IMG/VR virus record: IMGVR_UViG_2675903606_000019 | Span: 1-11,135 of that record | DNA from: a virus | Lineage: Duplodnaviria; Heunggongvirae; Uroviricota; Caudoviricetes | DNA length: 11,135 nt | Reading direction: 5' to 3' (one strand) | Shown: piece after piece, positions 1,782 to 10,526 of the stretch | How the letters are laid out: each line of letters begins with the position of its first letter | How positions within the stretch are numbered: position 1 is the stretch's first letter | Translations under genes and position numbers: made by a program | The notes under the pieces: generated by a model | What the model saw: the letters and a program-made list of their open reading frames with translations, nothing else | Databases searched by the model: none | What the model was told of the DNA's origin: nothing

Positions 1782-1927
1782 TCACGCTGGCGGCACACAG
1801 CCGCCACACATCAATCATCTGAACACAGAGCTATAACCATGAAGATTGAATATACGCCAGAACGTGGGCGGGGATTCGTTCGCCCTGGTGAGACTGGAAA
1901 ACCACAAAATTGGGGTTTTTCAGGCAT

Positions 1928-1955
1928 AAAAAAAGCGGCCCCGAAATGGAGCCGC
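1928..1955 (-). terminator. Rho-independent terminator for the leftward small-gene operon
   Basis: GC stem GCGGC/GCCGC (1935-1939 / 1951-1955) with possible inner pairs. On the minus strand it is followed by a 7-U run (complement of A-run 1928-1934). It lies about 100 nt downstream of the minus-strand gene ending at 2051. Confidence 0.5.
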
Positions 1956-2050
1956 CTTTCTGAACAGATAACCCGCTGCGCCGTTTGTGTGTGTGATCCC
2001 AAACATAAGCACGGGGATGATAGCCGCTATCAGGCTGGTGGGCAATGCAA

Positions 2051-2239
2051 TCAGTCTGGTTCAGTTCGTTGCCATACCTGCAATGAGCGCTTTTCCCTGT
2101 ACTCTTTAAGGAATTGCTCAAGGGCAAAAGCACATGGCGCGAATCTTTCTGATTCATGTTCTATCTTTCTGCGCCGTCTTTTCCGTGCCGGTGATAATGT
2201 TTTGGTCAATTCTTTATCGGTCATTGTGTTGTCCTGCAT
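2051..2239 (-). CDS. Small basic hypothetical protein (62 aa; alternative start at 2224 gives 57 aa)
   Basis: Track ORF MQDNTMTDKELTKTLSPARKRRRRKIEHESERF... The second ATG (MTDKEL) has an AGGA RBS 7 nt upstream. Arg/Lys-rich segment suggests nucleic-acid binding. It sits second in a leftward two-gene unit ending at the terminator near 1928-1955. Confidence 0.5.
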   Translation of the reverse strand: MQDNTMTDKELTKTLSPARKRRRRKIEHESERFAPCAFALEQFLKEYREKRSLQVWQRTEPD

Positions 2240-2281
2240 AGCAATGCGCCGTAATACCTTACACCACGGCGCTGATGGTGA

Positions 2282-2461
2282 TTACTCTGGTTCTTTGGCC
2301 TTGCGCCGCTGGCGATATTCAACTTCTCGTTTTAATGCTGCAGTAACAAATTGCCCCGTACTTTCGCCAGGCATTTTTACCGCCTCAACATTGTTCATAA
2401 CTTCATGCGGAACCCTTGCCGCAACGGTTTGTGATTTTGCGTTTACTGCTTTTGTCGCCAT
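2282..2461 (-). CDS. Small hypothetical protein (59 aa, below the ORF-track cutoff), candidate switch regulator
   Basis: Hand-translated from the minus strand: MATKAVNAKSQTVAARVPHEVMNNVEAVKMPGESTGQFVTAALKREVEYRQRRKAKEPE, stop TAA. RBS GAGGGG lies 8-13 nt upstream of the ATG (complement of 2459-2461). It is the first gene transcribed leftward from the operator region. Confidence 0.5.
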   Translation of the reverse strand: MATKAVNAKSQTVAARVPHEVMNNVEAVKMPGESTGQFVTAALKREVEYRQRRKAKEPE

Positions 2462-2511
2462 GTGGTGTACCCCTCATAAAAAACAAATGCAGTATGCAGG
2501 AAAAAAAATAA

Positions 2512-2563
2512 GTGTTCAACACTTGACGTGTTTAACACCTGGGTTTAAATTGGTGTTCAACAC
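2512..2563. promoter_or_regulatory. Three near-palindromic 11-bp operator-like sites GTGTT(C/T)AACAC overlapping divergent promoter elements
   Basis: Sites at 2512-2522, 2528-2538 and 2553-2563. Rightward -35 TTGACG (2523-2528) and -10 TAAATT (2546-2551, 17-bp spacer) lie between and within the sites. On the minus strand a TTGAAC -35 lies inside site 1. The region sits between divergently oriented small genes. Confidence 0.5.
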
Positions 2564-2660
2564 CTTGTTGGCGCAAGGTGCAGAAACGACGAAACCCGGC
2601 AGTGCGCTAACACTAACCGGGCTTCTAACCACCAACGATAGCGAAAGTATCGAGGTAGCT

Positions 2661-2864
2661 ATGAGAAATAATACCACACACCCGCAAGGGCGGGATTCGC
2701 ACAACCTGAATAAATACATCTGGCGTTTTATCGCCCTGAGCACGGCACAACCGCGCGTGATTACCATTGAGGCCACCAGCGAACAGGAAGCACGCCAGCA
2801 ATCTCCGGCTGGCTGCGTGATGGTATTCGCCGCCCGTATTCGTCAAGGGGTGTGCCATGACTGA
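2661..2864 (+). CDS. Small hypothetical protein (67 aa), first gene of the rightward early operon
   Basis: ATG at 2661 preceded by GAGGT RBS. In frame with the long track ORF 1839..2864 but only this 3' part is plausible. Its stop TGA (2862-2864) overlaps the next start ATG (2857-2859), consistent with translational coupling. Confidence 0.55.
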   Translation: MRNNTTHPQGRDSHNLNKYIWRFIALSTAQPRVITIEATSEQEARQQSPAGCVMVFAARIRQGVCHD

Positions 2865-3183: not shown

Positions 3184-3483
3184 ATGAGAACATATTTATC
3201 TGGCTTGACTGCCAGCGGTTATGCACACCCAAAAATTATCCCCGGCGCTATTTATCTGGATAAGAACGGTAACAGAGTAACGGTAAAAGAACTGATGTTT
3301 GACCGTGTTTATTTTATCCGTGATGGATATTCATTTCTTAGTTCGCTGAACGTGGAGATCTTTATTTGCAGATTCCGGCGGGAAATCCCGACTTCCAGAA
3401 ATAACCATGTGTCACGTGTGGATGTGGATAAAAAACTACAGGAACTGAAAAACATGATTGCCGCGTGGAGAGAGCAGAAATGA
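3184..3483 (+). CDS. Hypothetical protein (99 aa), AT-rich cargo-like gene
   Basis: Track ORF MRTYLSGLTASGYAHPKIIPGAIYLDKNGNRVTVKELMFDRVYFIRDGYSF... RBS GGGGA upstream. Its stop TGA (3481-3483) overlaps the ATG (3480-3482) of the primase gene (ATGA coupling). Confidence 0.65.
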   Translation: MRTYLSGLTASGYAHPKIIPGAIYLDKNGNRVTVKELMFDRVYFIRDGYSFLSSLNVEIFICRFRREIPTSRNNHVSRVDVDKKLQELKNMIAAWREQK

Positions 3484-5603
3484 AAAAAGCGCCAAATTTA
3501 AAACACCAGCCGCGTGACAAAATGACGGAAGTCATCATTTTTGCGGGTAGTGATGCGTGGGCACATGCGAAGCAGTGGCAGGAACAGGACGGGCGACTGG
3601 CTGGCGACAGCGTGCCTCCTGTCTGGCTTGGAGAGCAACAACTTGCCGAACTGGATAAGCTGCAAATTGTGCCGGAAGGCCGAAAATCAGTACGCATATT
3701 CAGGGCCGGACATCTTGAGCCAGTAATGATCAAGGCGATTGGTCAGAAGCTGGCGGCGGCAGGCGTACAGGATGCAAATTTTTACCCTGATGGAATGCAC
3801 GGTCAGGAGGTGGAGAACTGGCGCGAATATCTAGCCCGTGAGCGGCAGAATCTTTCTGATGGTCTGGTTATTGAGTTTCCGGTAAAGAAAAAAGATACCG
3901 GAAGCCATAGCGATGACGAATTAAAGCCACGCGTTGAAAGTCGCGCCGATGGTGTTTTCTGGGTAACGCCCAAAGTGGATAAGCAGTCAGGCGAAATTAT
4001 CCGGCCTGAGACGTGGTTATGTTCTCCGCTTGAACTACTGGGAACGGGGACGATCGGTAAAGAGCATTACCGCGTGATGCGCTGGAAAAAAACCGCAAAC
4101 CATGAAGTCATCACAATGGCGATCCCGTGTGGTGGTATCGGCGACCGTGACGGCTGGCGGTTACTTAAAGATCACGGGCTGAACGTGACAACCAACGGCA
4201 AATACAGGGCAATCCTGGCGGACTGGATGCAGTTAAGCGGAAGCCATGAGGAATGGCAGTTAAGCACAACAACGGGCTGGCATTTTGGCGCGTACATCAT
4301 GCCGGACGGTTCGATCATTGGTGAATCTGAAAAACCGATCCTGTTTACCGGAAAAAGCGCCGCGATTAACGGTTATTCCGTGGCGGGCACGGCGGATGGC
4401 TGGCGCGACAGCGTGGCGCGGCTGGCTGGCGGTAATGCCTCAATGATGCTGGGTGTGGCAACGTCACTGGCAGCGCCTTTAATTGGCCTTGTGGGTGCTG
4501 ACGGCTTCGGGGTGCATCTTTTCGAACAGTCATCGGCAGGTAAGACCACCACGCAGAACATCGCATCAAGTTTATGGGGAGAGCCGGACGCGCAGCGGCT
4601 GACCTGGTACGGCACGGCGTTAGGTATTGCCAATGAGGCCGAGGCCCATAATGACGGGCTTTTACCACTGGATGAGATAGGCCAGGCCGGAAATGCGCGG
4701 GAAGTGTCAACGTCTGCTTATACGCTGTTTAACGGTTCAGGGAAATTGCAGGGGGCGAAGGATGGCGGCAACAGGGAGATCAAACACTGGCGAACGGTGG
4801 CAATCAGCACCGGAGAAATGGACGTTGAGACATTCCTCAAAAGTGAGGGGATAAAAGTTAAGGCGGGGCAGCTTGTCCGACTGCTTAACGTTCCGATGGA
4901 AAAAGCCACGAAATTTCACGAATACAGCAACGGTAAGGAACATGCTGACGCGTTAAAGGATGCCTGGACAGCAAATCACGGGGCGGCGGGTCGTGAGTGG
5001 GTTAAATGGCTGGCAGGCCACCAGCAGGAGGCAAAGGATACGGTAAGGGAATGCCGCGAACGGTGGCGCAACCTGATACCGGAGAGCTACGGCGAGCAGG
5101 TCCACCGCGTGGGTGAACGTTTCGCCATACTGGAGGCCGCGCTTGTGCTTTCCGGTCATGTAACTGGCTGGGTCGTGCAGGAATGCCGCGACGCGATACA
5201 GCATAACTTTAATGCCTGGGTGAAGGAGTTCGGCACGGGTAACAGGGAATTTAAACAGATGGTTGAACAGGCTGAGGCGTTTTTGTCGTCGTTTGGGTTT
5301 AGCCGCTACCTTCCGTACCCCAATACAGATGAGCGTGATTTACCGATTAAAGAGCTTGCCGGATACAGAAAAGGGAGCATTCGCAACGAAGATGACGAGA
5401 TGCGCTATTACACGTTCCCGCACGTGTTTGAGAGTGAGATAGCGAAGGGATTTAATCCGGCGCATTTTGCGCGTGCCCTGGATGCTGCCGGAATGCTGGA
5501 GAAGGGAAGCGATCGCCGATACAAAAAAAAGGCGCTGGGCAAGATTGGGGGTAAGCAGCATGTTTTTTACGTGCTGATGTTCCAGCCTGATGATGAAGAT
5601 TAA
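3480..5603 (+). CDS. Replication primase/helicase-type protein (P4 alpha / PICI Pri-Rep-like; NTPase with Walker A motif)
   Basis: About 707 aa (track ORF 3465..5603; the ATG at 3480 with ATGA overlap is preferred, ATG at 3465 or 3522 possible). Contains Walker A-like SSAGKTTT and is followed directly by an iteron array. Size and position match the satellite/prophage primase-helicase class. The exact domain family needs a profile search. Confidence 0.8.
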   Translation: MKKAPNLKHQPRDKMTEVIIFAGSDAWAHAKQWQEQDGRLAGDSVPPVWLGEQQLAELDKLQIVPEGRKSVRIFRAGHLEPVMIKAIGQKLAAAGVQDANFYPDGMHGQEVENWREYLARERQNLSDGLVIEFPVKKKDTGSHSDDELKPRVESRADGVFWVTPKVDKQSGEIIRPETWLCSPLELLGTGTIGKEHYRVMRWKKTANHEVITMAIPCGGIGDRDGWRLLKDHGLNVTTNGKYRAILADWMQLSGSHEEWQLSTTTGWHFGAYIMPDGSIIGESEKPILFTGKSAAINGYSVAGTADGWRDSVARLAGGNASMMLGVATSLAAPLIGLVGADGFGVHLFEQSSAGKTTTQNIASSLWGEPDAQRLTWYGTALGIANEAEAHNDGLLPLDEIGQAGNAREVSTSAYTLFNGSGKLQGAKDGGNREIKHWRTVAISTGEMDVETFLKSEGIKVKAGQLVRLLNVPMEKATKFHEYSNGKEHADALKDAWTANHGAAGREWVKWLAGHQQEAKDTVRECRERWRNLIPESYGEQVHRVGERFAILEAALVLSGHVTGWVVQECRDAIQHNFNAWVKEFGTGNREFKQMVEQAEAFLSSFGFSRYLPYPNTDERDLPIKELAGYRKGSIRNEDDEMRYYTFPHVFESEIAKGFNPAHFARALDAAGMLEKGSDRRYKKKALGKIGGKQHVFYVLMFQPDDED

Positions 5604-6943: not shown

Positions 6944-6956
6944 GTACCCAAAAAAA

Positions 6957-6992
6957 GCCCGATAAGTACAGGAGGCATCTTATCGGGCTTTT
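6957..6992. terminator. Second hairpin terminator, potentially bidirectional
   Basis: 10-bp stem GCCCGATAAG/CTTATCGGGC with 12-nt loop. A-run upstream (6950-6956), TTTT downstream, and a further T8 run at 7003-7010. Confidence 0.5.
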
Positions 6993-7071
6993 GCATATGA
7001 GGTTTTTTTTGGTGCACTGACACACATGATCGGGATCATCATTTCATAATTTGCAACACAACTCAACATCA

Positions 7072-7099
7072 TTGCATAAAATGCAATCATGATTATAAT
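7072..7099 (+). promoter_or_regulatory. Strong sigma70-like promoter for the capsid operon (-35 TTGCAT, 16-bp spacer, -10 TATAAT)
   Basis: TTGCAT at 7072-7077 and a perfect TATAAT at 7094-7099. Located about 55 nt upstream of the first late-operon start codon. Confidence 0.5.
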
Positions 7100-7103
7100 C
7101 AGA

Positions 7104-7119
7104 TCTGGATGAACATCCA
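7104..7119. promoter_or_regulatory. Perfect inverted repeat CTGGATG-AA-CATCCAG at the predicted transcription start
   Basis: Seen in the sequence. Followed within 6 nt by a T6 run (GATTTTTTAAG). Could be an operator or a 5' RNA hairpin/attenuator. A second dyad, ATGATC-GG-GATCAT, lies upstream at about 7026-7039. Confidence 0.45.
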
Positions 7120-7155
7120 GTTATGATTTTTTAAGTCAAAGAGGAATTTCTTACT

Positions 7156-8428: not shown

Positions 8429-8764
8429 ATGAACACTCCATACATTGAGTTATTTGCAGGCAGTCAGCAGGTATCAACGACGCTGGTACATTTTGCCGCT
8501 GATGCTGGCGTTATTCAGGAATTTACCCCGCTGATGCTGGCGGACAATGGCGAGTTTAAGCCGTGGGATGGTCAGGAATCTGGCAAGGCTGTTTATCTGA
8601 CCTCGTACCCCGTTGACACGTCGACGCAGAAATCAGCACAGTGCTATAAGACGGGGATATTCAATATCGCCGCCGTTAACTGGCCTGAGAGCGTCGACAC
8701 CGATGCGAAAAAATGCGCCGCCTTTGCGGGTTCTGGCGTATCCGTTCAGCCGCTGGCCCGATAA
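8429..8764 (+). CDS. Head decoration protein, lambda gpD family
   Basis: 111 aa from ATG 8429 (the track starts at GTG 8420); RBS GGTGGA 5 nt upstream. Matches lambda gpD blocks: TPLMLADNGEFKPWDG (lambda TPLMLDTSSRKLVAWDG), YKTGIFNIAAVNWPESVDTDAKKCAAFAGSGVSV ([35 protein letters not shown]). Confidence 0.85.
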   Translation: MNTPYIELFAGSQQVSTTLVHFAADAGVIQEFTPLMLADNGEFKPWDGQESGKAVYLTSYPVDTSTQKSAQCYKTGIFNIAAVNWPESVDTDAKKCAAFAGSGVSVQPLAR

Positions 8765-8776
8765 GCAGGGGGAACG

Positions 8777-9190
8777 ATGGCAACGAATGAAAGCATCATG
8801 GCGCTACCGCTGGCGAGTAAATTTAAAGCCGAAGCGCGGGCAATGGCTGACAGAGGGTTATCAACCTACGAGGCCGTATATCAACTCAACAAACTGGAAG
8901 AACAGGACAAGCCGCGCGCTGATGCGATTATGGCGCTTCATGAACATAACGACTATCAGCCGCTGTTACGTGCAATGGCAAACGTGCCATGTATTAGCGT
9001 CGATAATGCTCGTGAAATCCTGAACATGACCATAGAGCAGGAGCGCCCAAAGGTTGCACCAGAGCTTACCGCAGCCTTTGAAAACTTTATGGACATGCAC
9101 AGCCCGCAAGCCGTATCAGCTGGCATGGCATACGATGGCAGAAACCAGGGCGATGACGGCGACATCGATCACATACTGAAAACCATCTGA
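8777..9190 (+). CDS. Hypothetical protein (137 aa), last gene of the capsid operon
   Basis: RBS AGGGGGA 4 nt upstream of the ATG. Acidic C-terminus. No resemblance noted to lambda FI/FII/W as I recall them. Followed by a strong terminator. Confidence 0.65.
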   Translation: MATNESIMALPLASKFKAEARAMADRGLSTYEAVYQLNKLEEQDKPRADAIMALHEHNDYQPLLRAMANVPCISVDNAREILNMTIEQERPKVAPELTAAFENFMDMHSPQAVSAGMAYDGRNQGDDGDIDHILKTI

Positions 9191-9196
9191 GACAAG

Positions 9197-9220
9197 GCCG
9201 GAGAAATCCGGCTTTTTTTT
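9197..9220 (+). terminator. Strong rho-independent terminator (GNRA tetraloop hairpin plus T8)
   Basis: Stem GCCGGA/TCCGGC with GAAA loop and 8 T (9213-9220). The stem is identical to that of the terminator at 6922-6943. Confidence 0.8.
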
Positions 9221-9298
9221 ACGGGTCCTTTCCGGCATATGGACCCGTTACGGGGCGGCGACCTCGCGGTTTTTCGCTATTTATGAGCCTTTTCAGGG
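9221..9298. other. Lambda-type cos site (cosQ-like, cosN 12-nt cohesive end GGGCGGCGACCT at 9253-9264, start of cosB)
   Basis: ACGGGTCCTTTCCGG...GTTACG-GGGCGGCGACCT-CGCGGTTTTTCGCTATTTATGA closely matches the right and left termini of phage lambda as I recall them (right end ...ACGGGTCCTTTCCGGTGATCCGACAGGTTACG, left end GGGCGGCGACCTCGCGGGTTTTCGCTATTTATGA...). Sequence diverges from lambda after about 9298. Confidence 0.8.
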
Positions 9299-9358
9299 GG
9301 GTGGTGGTGGTTTTGTTGTTTGCTCTATCTTTATGAATGAAAAGGGAAAGATGCAAAC

Positions 9359-9396
9359 AATACACCAACCTGAAGCAGTAATTAAGTTGGTGTATT
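9359..9396. repeat. Perfect 11-bp inverted repeat AATACACCAAC-N16-GTTGGTGTATT abutting the terS start codon
   Basis: Read directly from the sequence. The right arm ends 2 nt before ATG 9398. Candidate cosB-type binding site or a translational-control hairpin. Confidence 0.5.
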
Positions 9397-9397
9397 A

Positions 9398-9940
9398 ATG
9401 AAATCGCACCTGATGAACAAAAAAAACATGGCGAAAAGCTGCCGTGTAAGTGCGACAGCGTTCGACAAGTGGGGAGTGACTCCCGTTGAACGTAAAGGCC
9501 GTGAGGCGTTTTACGATGTTGCCAGCGTGATAGACAATAGGGTTAACAATGCAATTAGCCAGCTTACAAACGACAAAGGCGATATTGATGATGATGAACT
9601 CTTACGAGTCAGGATCAGATTACTGACAGCACAGGCGGAGGCGCAGGAACTTAAAAACGAGCGCGATCGCGGTGACGTGATCGATACTGAGTTTTGCCTG
9701 TACGCGCTTTCAAAGCTGGCGAGTCAGATTTCATCAATCATGGACAGCCTCCCGCTTACTATGCAAAGGAGCTTCCCACAGATTACCCCCGCCATGCTGG
9801 ATAGGCTTAAAAGGGAAGTGGTTAAAGCCTGTAATGCCAGTGCCAGAGTTGCCGACAACCTCCCACAGATACTGGCTGATTACTTGAAAGAAACAACCGG
9901 AAACGTACCGGAAAAGTTGCAGCCGAATAAAGATAAGTAA
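9398..9940 (+). CDS. Terminase small subunit, lambda Nu1 family
   Basis: 180 aa. C-terminal two thirds align with lambda Nu1 as recalled: RLLTAQAEAQELKNERDRGDVIDTEFCLYALSKLASQISSIMDSLPLTMQRSFPQ (lambda RLTRAQADAQELKNARDSAEVVETAFCTFVLSRIAGEIASILDGLPLSVQRRFPE). N-terminal region is more divergent but still shows NKK...W...G.PV.R.G....YD.A.VI. Confidence 0.85.
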   Translation: MKSHLMNKKNMAKSCRVSATAFDKWGVTPVERKGREAFYDVASVIDNRVNNAISQLTNDKGDIDDDELLRVRIRLLTAQAEAQELKNERDRGDVIDTEFCLYALSKLASQISSIMDSLPLTMQRSFPQITPAMLDRLKREVVKACNASARVADNLPQILADYLKETTGNVPEKLQPNKDK

Positions 9941-9951
9941 CGTAGTACGCT

Positions 9952-10233
9952 ATGACTGAATCCGAAATACTGCGATTAATCCGCCGCGTCTCTGGAATCA
10001 GCCAGCAGGCTGACGAACAGACCACGCAGCCGGACAGCGTGACAGCCGAAAACTATGCGCGTGTTGTTGCTGAGGTGATGCGCCGTGATGGTATAGAACT
10101 TAATGGCGTGGATATGCGCAACATACGAACCAGAGTTCTTGAGTTGCTGGCCTACCGTCGCCGCGTGGAGATGTATCGGGAGAAGGAGAAAATAACGTAC
10201 CACTGGAAGAAGCCGGAGCGGTTGCGGCGGTAA
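9952..10233 (+). CDS. Hypothetical protein (93 aa) downstream of terS
   Basis: Track ORF MTESEILRLIRRVSGISQQADEQ... It occupies the position where lambda has the large terminase gene A, but is far too small to be a terminase. No family recognised. Confidence 0.55.
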   Translation: MTESEILRLIRRVSGISQQADEQTTQPDSVTAENYARVVAEVMRRDGIELNGVDMRNIRTRVLELLAYRRRVEMYREKEKITYHWKKPERLRR

Positions 10234-10526
10234 CTGGTTGATATTCCCGACGGACCAAAAATGGGTGGCTACATCCCTCGCTTCTGAGGACTGTTAACAA
10301 GCTGCCTGAAAGACAGTCACAAACTACGAAATTTTCGCAGTTTAATTAATGATCAGCTTAATCGCTAACCCGCTGATATTTTCGGAAACCTCAATTTGAG
10401 GAAGTCGGCGCGGTAACTCGCTGAACTTTAAGCAAAGCGCAAAATTGCGCTTGCTGAATAATCATTATGATTACGCAGATGATTAAGGAATGACCGAAGG
10501 CGGAAATTCGCCTGTGGTTAATGGGG

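Follow-up and report, generated by a model that had tools for sequence, protein, structure and literature searches.

The DNA analysed here (IMG/VR record IMGVR_UViG_2675903606_000019, 11,135 bp, referred to below as the window) is, judged by its gene content, a Gram-negative phage-inducible chromosomal island (PICI) of ~11 kb inserted in tqsA. Between alpA and the primase gene it carries a divergent intergenic region, which is probably a two-layer control cassette composed of a repressor of the YlcI family and a SymR-like antisense RNA. The related loci comprise 31 from GTDB genomes, 80 from IMG/VR, those of three E. coli contigs, the model island EcCICFT073 and vB_KppS-Ant; the comparison of operators with YlcI spans ~105 of them. 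vB_KppS-Ant is a packaged capsid-forming satellite that carries the same cassette, and it was the single record recovered when phage collections were searched with the YlcI and Icd-like proteins.

The YlcI-like protein and its candidate operators

The 11-bp motif GTGTTYAACAC occurs exactly three times in the window (0.03 copies expected; 0 of 200 shuffles reached three). Three GTGTT(C/T)AACAC operators had been claimed in an earlier annotation made by a model from the letters alone (the sequence-only reading), and all three were recovered. Site 1 (2512-2522, GTGTTCAACAC) overlaps the -35 element of the leftward promoter and abuts that of the rightward promoter. Site 2 (2528-2538, GTGTTTAACAC) occupies the spacer between the -35 and -10 elements of the rightward promoter, and site 3 (2553-2563, GTGTTCAACAC) lies on its start site.

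The rightward promoter, serving the operon that runs from the Icd-like gene to the primase gene, was found by a promoter scan as a sigma-70-like element (2523-2551, plus strand; TTGACG at 2523-2528, a 17-nt spacer and TAAATT at 2546-2551) with a predicted start at ~2557-2560. A -35 of the form TTGA(C/A/G)N is present at the same offset in the relatives. The predicted leftward promoter of ylcI was read from the sequence (2491-2519, minus strand; TTGAAC at 2519..2514, a 17-nt spacer and CATACT at 2496..2491). Its -35 falls inside site 1, and it is followed by the ylcI Shine-Dalgarno sequence GAGGGG (2475..2470). An overlap of the sites with the -35 or start positions of both promoters, as the sequence-only reading had it, holds in the window for the rightward start and the leftward -35, but not for the leftward start, where no site lies.

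The relatives share a common architecture. The ylcI start is followed after ~24 nt by an operator copy fused to TATACT, the ylcI -10, at the position of the leftward promoter; then come an A-rich tract, a TTGACG -35, an operator in the spacer, the -10 and an operator on the start site. The position of site 2 is kept in nearly all of the ~105 loci, and that of site 3 is conserved at 22-26 bp from site 2, the site being inverted in some relatives. A copy at the position of site 1 is found only in window-type cassettes. The conservation of the operator triad, which had been proposed as a check, is therefore seen for the positions of sites 2 and 3 but not for that of site 1, and the core itself varies with YlcI. 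In each 8-kb relative locus the cognate sites are confined to this intergenic region. Sites, promoters and the co-variation described below together support the divergent switch facing an operon into the primase gene, which was the central claim of the earlier annotation.

A scan allowing up to two mismatches returned one extra site in the window, GTGCTTAACAC at 1593-1603, which on the minus strand differs from GTGTTYAACAC by a single mismatch and coincides with the start codon of alpA. It was rejected as an alpA operator: the count does not exceed chance expectation, and none of the relatives carries a cognate site close to alpA.

The ylcI-like gene (2282-2461, minus strand) encodes a 59-aa protein, a predicted ribbon-helix-helix (RHH) repressor. 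The sequence-only reading had described it as unannotated. The gene exists as described, the protein matching the NCBIfam family NF041551 (YlcI/YnfO; 59.7 bits against a curated cutoff of 30, residues 9-50) and also phrog_949. It was unannotated only in the track of open reading frames (ORFs) available to that reader, since RefSeq annotates it in close relatives under the YlcI/YnfO name.

About nine strand motifs of YlcI (residues 9-17) pair one-to-one with operator cores in the ~105 loci. KSQT[VLI]AARV, the motif paired with GTGTTYAACAC, is one of them. KS[KR]KLEARV (for example KSKKLEARV) is found with GTGGCTGACAC, KSQ[AS]LK[AS]RV with GTGG[GA]CCACAC (KSQALKARV with GTGGGCCACAC) and KSQSVTARI with GTGTAAGACAC. 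KSKR[FI]D[VA]RV accompanies GTGTCC[GC]ACAC, and KSQK[LV]Q[AT]RA accompanies GTGGA[GA]TCCAC. The remaining pairs are KSQKMSARV with TGGGTGCCAG, KSQKIQARA with CTGGAATCCAG and KSQMTTVRI with GTGTATTTCAC. The variable residues 11-15 track the operator core, while R16 and the GTG/CAC arms are constant. The reading of a palindromic operator by beta-strand side chains, which characterizes RHH proteins, is thus indicated here by comparative evidence.

Two natural swaps separate YlcI from the neighbouring genes. In the Edwardsiella hoshinae locus L002 (NZ_BAUC01000010.1, cassette at 3800-4171) YlcI is 100% identical to that of the window and the sites are the same; AlpA, the integrase and the Icd-like protein are only 31%, 24% and 53% identical, respectively. 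As the case of L002 illustrates, the ~0.5-kb cassette appears to move between islands and genera by recombination. The reverse situation is found in EcCICFT073, which matches the window at 95% up to position 2314 and at 93% from position 2574, with 260 bp between them that have no match. The exchanged 260 bp comprise YlcI residues 1 to ~49, both promoters, the sites and hairpin 1, and the cassette of EcCICFT073 carries GTGGGCCACAC with KSQALKARV in this stretch. Since these swaps separate YlcI from AlpA, the Icd-like protein and the product of the second small gene (orf57), the 59-aa protein is, on comparative grounds, the best candidate and a likely operator-binding repressor.

The fold is weakly supported, and YlcI is probably an RHH dimer. 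Its AF2 model has the strand-helix-helix order, hhalign aligns it in register with Arc and CopG, and a G-E-S turn together with R16 is invariant in the family. The alignment with Arc would turn the variable residues 12 and 14, along with the invariant R16, toward the DNA, which fits a variable core between constant GTG/CAC arms. A few YlcI members give weak RHH matches (CB_ParB_C and PSK_trans_fac, E 0.03-0.15). No Pfam RHH family reaches threshold against YlcI and a PDB sequence search returned nothing relevant, so that on sequence grounds YlcI was placed neither in an RHH family nor with any solved structure. The earlier annotation had suggested a search for a helix-turn-helix (HTH) or RHH fold: the model of the 59-aa protein has the strand-helix-helix order, with weak support for an RHH fold, and the model of the orf57 product consists of a tail and one helix.

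Candidate antisense RNA opposite the start of the Icd-like gene

The first gene of the rightward operon (2661-2864, plus strand) encodes a 67-aa Icd-like protein (NF033153, 69.8 bits; phrog_6196) and has a Shine-Dalgarno sequence GAGG at 2652-2655. Its ATG is kept at 179-217 nt from the ylcI start. Opposite the Shine-Dalgarno sequence and the start codon, a SymR-like cis-antisense RNA of ~78 nt is predicted on the minus strand, from ~2661 to 2583. Helix 1 (2661..2626) covers the complement of both elements, and in most relatives the anti-Shine-Dalgarno sequence sits in its loop. Helix 2 (2625..2591) with the U-rich tail is the predicted terminator of this RNA. Its predicted counterpart in CFT073 runs on the minus strand of NC_004431.1 from ~1380857 down to 1380771.

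Folding of the ~100 nt from site 3 to the ATG gives -47.1 kcal/mol (z = -5.3) for the minus strand and -31.3 kcal/mol (z = -2.4) for the plus strand. An alignment of 25 distinct sequences contains two helices with 26 pairs, in which 96.5% of the cells are paired; compensatory changes are found in 16 of the 26 pairs (16-18 across both alignments). None of 500 shuffles reaches the observed values, and slid controls pair at 34-47%. The strand is also indicated: when read as minus strand, 625 of 648 cells (96.5%) are canonical, versus 518 of 648 (80%) for the plus strand, and there are 109 G·U pairs in the former reading but 2 in the latter. In an expanded set of 49 distinct sequences, pairing is 94.8% (99.1% in helix 2), and the antisense strand is the more stable one in 49 of 49.

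The antisense RNA would be transcribed from an extended -10, TGgTATTAT (2676..2668, minus strand; TATTAT at 2673..2668), which falls within codons 3-6 of the Icd-like gene. In 26 of 26 loci a TAnnnT hexamer is found 10 nt 5' of the start-codon complement, though the codons that it overlaps differ. The same position is known for symR, the -10 of which lies in the first codons of symE, where silent mutations abolish the promoter (PMC1891008).

The relation to SymR is seen from both sides. The Rfam model SymR (RF01809) aligns in full length with the minus strand of the window (2660..2588) at 33.3 bits and with the relatives at 28-46 bits, scores that are far under the gathering threshold of 61 bits by which Rfam assigns membership. 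A covariance model built from the island alignment gives exactly one match, on the ylcI strand, in 64 of 64 loci, and it also finds the genuine symR of E. coli K-12 in full length and on the right strand (36 bits, E = 5e-6). The structural and positional features of SymR are predicted here as well, namely an antisense RNA over the Shine-Dalgarno sequence and AUG, a -10 in the first codons and two stem-loops. The target, however, is the Icd-like gene and not symE, which encodes an AbrB-fold toxin; tblastn with SymE found no match in any locus. From sequence comparison, the relation to SymR could be either distant homology or close convergence.

Directly after site 3 there is a further stem-loop (hairpin 1; CACCTTG/CAAGGTG, 2561-2580), which is kept in nearly all relatives as a structure, with differing sequences and, unlike the antisense RNA, no strand bias. 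This stem-loop is a candidate mRNA 5' hairpin, a candidate backstop terminator for the antisense RNA or a candidate DNA-level element.

The gene that follows the cassette varies. Instead of the Icd-like gene, an unrelated first gene of 89 aa is found in L003 and one of 171 aa in L011, and Ash-family genes of 204-258 aa are found in L035-L037. Because the cassette also precedes unrelated first genes, it appears to guard the operon and not one protein. In L003, L009, L011 and L035-L037 the antisense promoter falls within the first ~7 codons, and these remain similar; the cassette is apparently fused to different genes.

Proposed control of the operon and alternative explanations

The computation established the sites and their statistics, the co-variation of protein and operator, the structure, strand and promoter hexamer of the RNA, and the fact that EcCICFT073 and a packaged capsid-forming PICI both carry the cassette; DNA binding, repression, the expression and action of the RNA and the link to a helper phage are inferred from these data. 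In the first layer, YlcI dimers would bind the three GTGTTYAACAC sites and occlude the rightward promoter. This would keep the operon of the Icd-like gene, a 106-aa ORF (orf106), the DUF4222 gene and the primase gene silent in the quiescent island. Site 1 over the ylcI -35 could provide autoregulation in the window, and the site over the ylcI start could do so in the relatives. In the second layer, a constitutive antisense RNA would pair with the leader, the Shine-Dalgarno sequence and the start codon of any leaky transcript, to all of which its sequence is fully complementary, and block translation. This block should extend downstream through coupling and polarity, because the next genes overlap (the Icd-like stop at 2864 overlaps the next start at 2857, and a second overlap is found at 3465/3483).

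Induction could be realized via read-through from the alpA promoter, head-on into ylcI and onward into the operon. Alternatively, a helper-phage antirepressor could relieve the repression. For EcCICFT073 a requirement for AlpA has been shown, and overexpression of AlpA is by itself enough to induce replication (PMC6092414).

Several observations weigh against two-layer control by YlcI and an antisense RNA. The leftward promoter fits the consensus at only 8 of 12 positions and was missed by the consensus promoter scan, and the window is without the operator copy that most relatives have over the ylcI start site. The U-tract of the antisense RNA terminator is interrupted (GUCGUUUCU). Besides the sub-gathering SymR scores, blastn of the island loci against the symE leader found no similarity, and for these two reasons homology to SymR, as opposed to convergence, is only putative. 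Furthermore, YlcI could not be an insurmountable lock, since overexpressed AlpA alone triggers replication of EcCICFT073.

Some protein other than YlcI could instead bind the palindromes, for instance AlpA, the Icd-like protein, the orf57 product or a factor of the host or helper phage; YlcI would then be unrelated to them (for example, an antitoxin-like or partition-type RHH protein). DNA binding by YlcI rests on comparative evidence, PHROGs labels the Icd-like families 'transcriptional repressor', and AlpA is the only experimentally proven regulator in such islands (PMC6092414). However, the operator cores track residues 9-17 of YlcI and nothing else. The same sites accompany the divergent AlpA and Icd-like proteins of L002, different sites accompany a near-identical Icd-like gene and an identical orf57 in EcCICFT073, and L003 and L011 keep the sites in front of an unrelated first gene. 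The existence of ~nine site types within one bacterial family, and of several within E. coli alone, is incompatible with binding by a host factor. Another binding protein is thus unlikely. It is still less probable that the stem-loops are features of the plus-strand mRNA (an attenuator, an RNA of the P4 CI or P1 C4 type, or a coding extension) and that no antisense RNA exists. Immunity RNAs of the C4/isrK type do occur in some Gram-negative PICIs (PMC10111431), PGAP extends the coding sequence (CDS) of the Icd-like gene to 103 aa in a close relative, and the plus strand also folds to some extent (z = -2.4). Yet the excess of G·U pairs, the share of canonical cells and the stability in all 49 sequences favour the minus strand, which also holds the conserved TAnnnT at the right distance. 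The leader indels are not multiples of three, and in-frame stops occur in 7 of 21 loci, which speaks against a coding extension. The C4 and isrK models of Rfam gave no match at E <= 1 on either strand of the window and eight relatives; a same-strand RNA of the C4, isrK or P4 CI type in the leader was rejected on this ground and because the structure is selected on the opposite strand.

A third explanation takes the Icd-like gene and the antisense RNA as a type I toxin-antitoxin system that stabilizes the island, YlcI merely setting the strength of the toxin promoter. The family takes its name from the cell-division inhibitor Icd of P1; SymE/SymR, with the nearest RNA relative, has been described as toxin-antitoxin-like (PMC1891008), and uncontrolled expression of EcCICFT073 impairs growth (PMC6092414). 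The conservation of the cassette before unrelated first genes, however, points to an operon being guarded rather than one toxin, and the toxicity of the 67-aa Icd-like protein is only putative. As the principal role of the cassette, stabilization appears rather improbable, although it can hold together with two-layer control.

If control by YlcI and the antisense RNA is accepted, a wider role could be considered. Gram-positive satellites have a known master repressor, which is inactivated by helper-phage proteins. It is possible, though at present a tentative suggestion from sequence comparison, that the YlcI family provides the master repressor of Gram-negative PICIs, including EcCICFT073 and the capsid-forming PICIs. 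Its many 'immunity types' would let islands share one cell, induction by a helper phage or AlpA would overcome YlcI, and the leader cassette would be portable, with symE-symR as a relative. The existence of such a repressor was left open by the founding study of EcCICFT073 in 2018 (PMC6092414).

Island context and comparison with known systems

PICIs were recognized by int, alpA, a primase/replication module, often a captured major capsid gene, an island size of ~10-15 kb and similarity to a validated member. The window has an integrase gene (1-1218), alpA (1593-1781), a primase/replication module with a DUF927 primase gene (3465-5603), a captured major capsid gene and a likeness to the validated EcCICFT073. 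The Icd-like gene, orf106 and the DUF4222 gene precede the primase gene, and it is followed by genes for SSB, a PerC-like protein, a lambda-E-type major capsid protein and a decoration protein, and by terS. EcCICFT073 has the same gene order and is 86-95% identical in DNA over much of its length.

The second small leftward gene claimed in the sequence-only reading (2051-2239, minus strand, 62 aa) is real but probably shorter. Its 36 homologues are mostly 57 aa long and start at Met6, which gives 2051-2224, and an AGGA Shine-Dalgarno sequence lies 7 nt 5' of this start. Coding conservation of the two small genes is borne out by the ylcI family across loci and, for orf57, by in-frame indels and by differences of 81/67/140 at the three codon positions. 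orf57 is restricted to E. coli/Shigella, where in E. coli islands it always stands immediately 3' of ylcI, and none of the 25 loci from outside E. coli that were compared has it. EcCICFT073, although its YlcI and operators differ, carries an orf57 that is 100% identical. The model of the protein shows neither an HTH nor an RHH fold but a disordered basic N-terminal tail and one helix. From this distribution and model, orf57 is best regarded as encoding a small basic accessory protein outside the conserved switch. The proposed pairing of a repressor with an antirepressor was therefore rejected, orf57 having a narrow distribution, no co-variation with the operators and no recognizable fold.

The ylcI-orf57 transcript should end at a strong intrinsic terminator (1925-1959, minus strand), in which a 12-bp stem (AAAGGCGGCUCC/GGGGCCGCUUUU) is followed by UUUAU; a U7 tract also belongs to the minus-strand form. 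On the plus strand, behind alpA, the same element has two A·C mismatches in place of G·U pairs and only CUUUCU, and it is weaker. Because of this weakness, alpA transcription may read through, head-on into ylcI.

The 341-aa ORF that covers the switch on the plus strand was held to be an artefact in the sequence-only reading, and the relatives agree: in 7 of 21 the in-frame open stretch 5' of the Icd-like ATG extends for just 15-135 nt. In L002, which has the same cassette, a stop closes the frame 15 nt upstream. The 103-aa extended Icd-like protein of PGAP was likewise discarded, its upstream extension not being conserved. When the region 1839-2864 of the window was compared with its relatives, 14 of 21 loci had a distance from the ylcI start to the ATG of 2 mod 3. 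In 13 of these 14 the antisense frame of ylcI is open and spurious plus-strand ORFs of 480-1044 nt result, the exception being L002; long spurious ORFs appear at this distance because that antisense frame of ylcI lacks stops. In L001, PGAP annotates a plus-strand pseudogene opposite orf57/ylcI (9335-9776) and places the start of the Icd-like CDS (10049-10360, 103 aa) within operator site 3. In vB_KppS-Ant (L033, LR881103.1) a 324-aa ORF (8578-9552) spans the whole switch and ylcI is omitted.

Other observations concern the remainder of the island. The terS segment (~720 bp, window 9222-9941) has the opposite orientation in the E. coli island L001 (17635..16917), which is 96% identical, and EcCICFT073 lacks it. 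An apparent ~65-bp inverted repeat is found at the ends of the segment in L001; no inverted repeat was found in the window. The Rfam int-alpA RNA (RF02996) is above threshold between int and alpA in L005 (6893-6961) and L018 (6519-6587), and it has no match in the window at E <= 1. The stretch 6953-7140 (minus strand) gave a sub-threshold match to Spy1186876 (26.8 bits versus 208), which is almost certainly due to chance. The 3' end of this stretch is a terminator-like hairpin (AAAAGCCCGAUAAG...CUUAUCGGGCUUUU) just past the PerC-like gene.

In the literature searched, no description of this cassette and no functional papers on YlcI or YnfO of K-12 were found. Nothing relevant was found there on YlcI/YnfO function, RHH proteins in PICIs, an antisense RNA to an Icd-like gene, SymR in satellites or derepression of EcCICFT073. 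The cassette offers concrete candidate parts for Gram-negative satellites (a repressor, operators, two promoters and an antisense RNA), and both EcCICFT073, an island amenable to experiment, and a packaged capsid-forming PICI carry it. Its natural specificity variants make clean swap experiments possible. The comparison also accounts for the recurrent mis-annotation of the region in the form of long spurious ORFs and an over-extended Icd-like CDS. The SymR-type antisense RNA is extended, as a prediction, from one chromosomal locus to 64 of 64 related island loci tested across Enterobacterales.

Among satellite repressors, the master repressor Stl/Rpr of the Gram-positive PICIs (SaPIs) resembles the cassette in that its gene is divergent from an excision/replication operon near int and in its presumed role in quiescence. 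Unlike YlcI, Stl is a large HTH protein, unrelated in sequence, and its relief by a helper-phage protein has been shown. Gram-negative PICIs additionally need AlpA (PMC6092414). The YlcI (DLP12) and YnfO (Qin) proteins of E. coli K-12 belong to the same NF041551 family, but they are encoded by prophage genes in a different context.

Phage P1 immI comprises the C1 operator Op51, the c4 antisense RNA, icd and ant, with the downstream genes depending on icd translation. As in P1 immI and P4 CI, an Icd-family gene opens an operon that would be held off by a promoter repressor and by a small RNA at the icd start. The c4 and CI RNAs are encoded on the same strand as their target and are processed from the leader, whereas the island RNA is predicted on the opposite strand.

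The RNA of symE-symR is cis-encoded and ~77 nt long; it has two stem-loops and a -10 in symE codons 5-7, and it is complementary to the leader, Shine-Dalgarno sequence and AUG (Kawano et al. 2007, PMC1891008). SymR exerts its effect mostly at the level of translation, requires neither Hfq nor RNase III and operates together with LexA (PMC1891008). The island cassette would share this RNA layout, the reciprocal matches of covariance models and the combination of a transcriptional repressor with an antisense RNA. It differs in its target, the Icd-like or another first gene, and in having YlcI with its own operators in place of LexA.

In phage P22, immI includes the RHH repressors Mnt and Arc, the divergent promoters Pmnt and Pant, and the sar antisense RNA. 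Both there and in the proposed cassette, a small RHH repressor is divergent from the repressed operon, its operators overlap both promoters, and a short cis-antisense RNA covers the ribosome-binding site of a gene in that operon. The cassette is unlike immI in having no detectable sequence relation to Mnt/Arc, a SymR-like RNA on the first gene instead of sar, and three 11-bp sites with variable cores (four in relatives) versus the single Omnt. The operon of the island encodes satellite replication functions, while that of P22 encodes an antirepressor. By analogy, P22 immI is the closest system in its logic, and SymR is the closest RNA.

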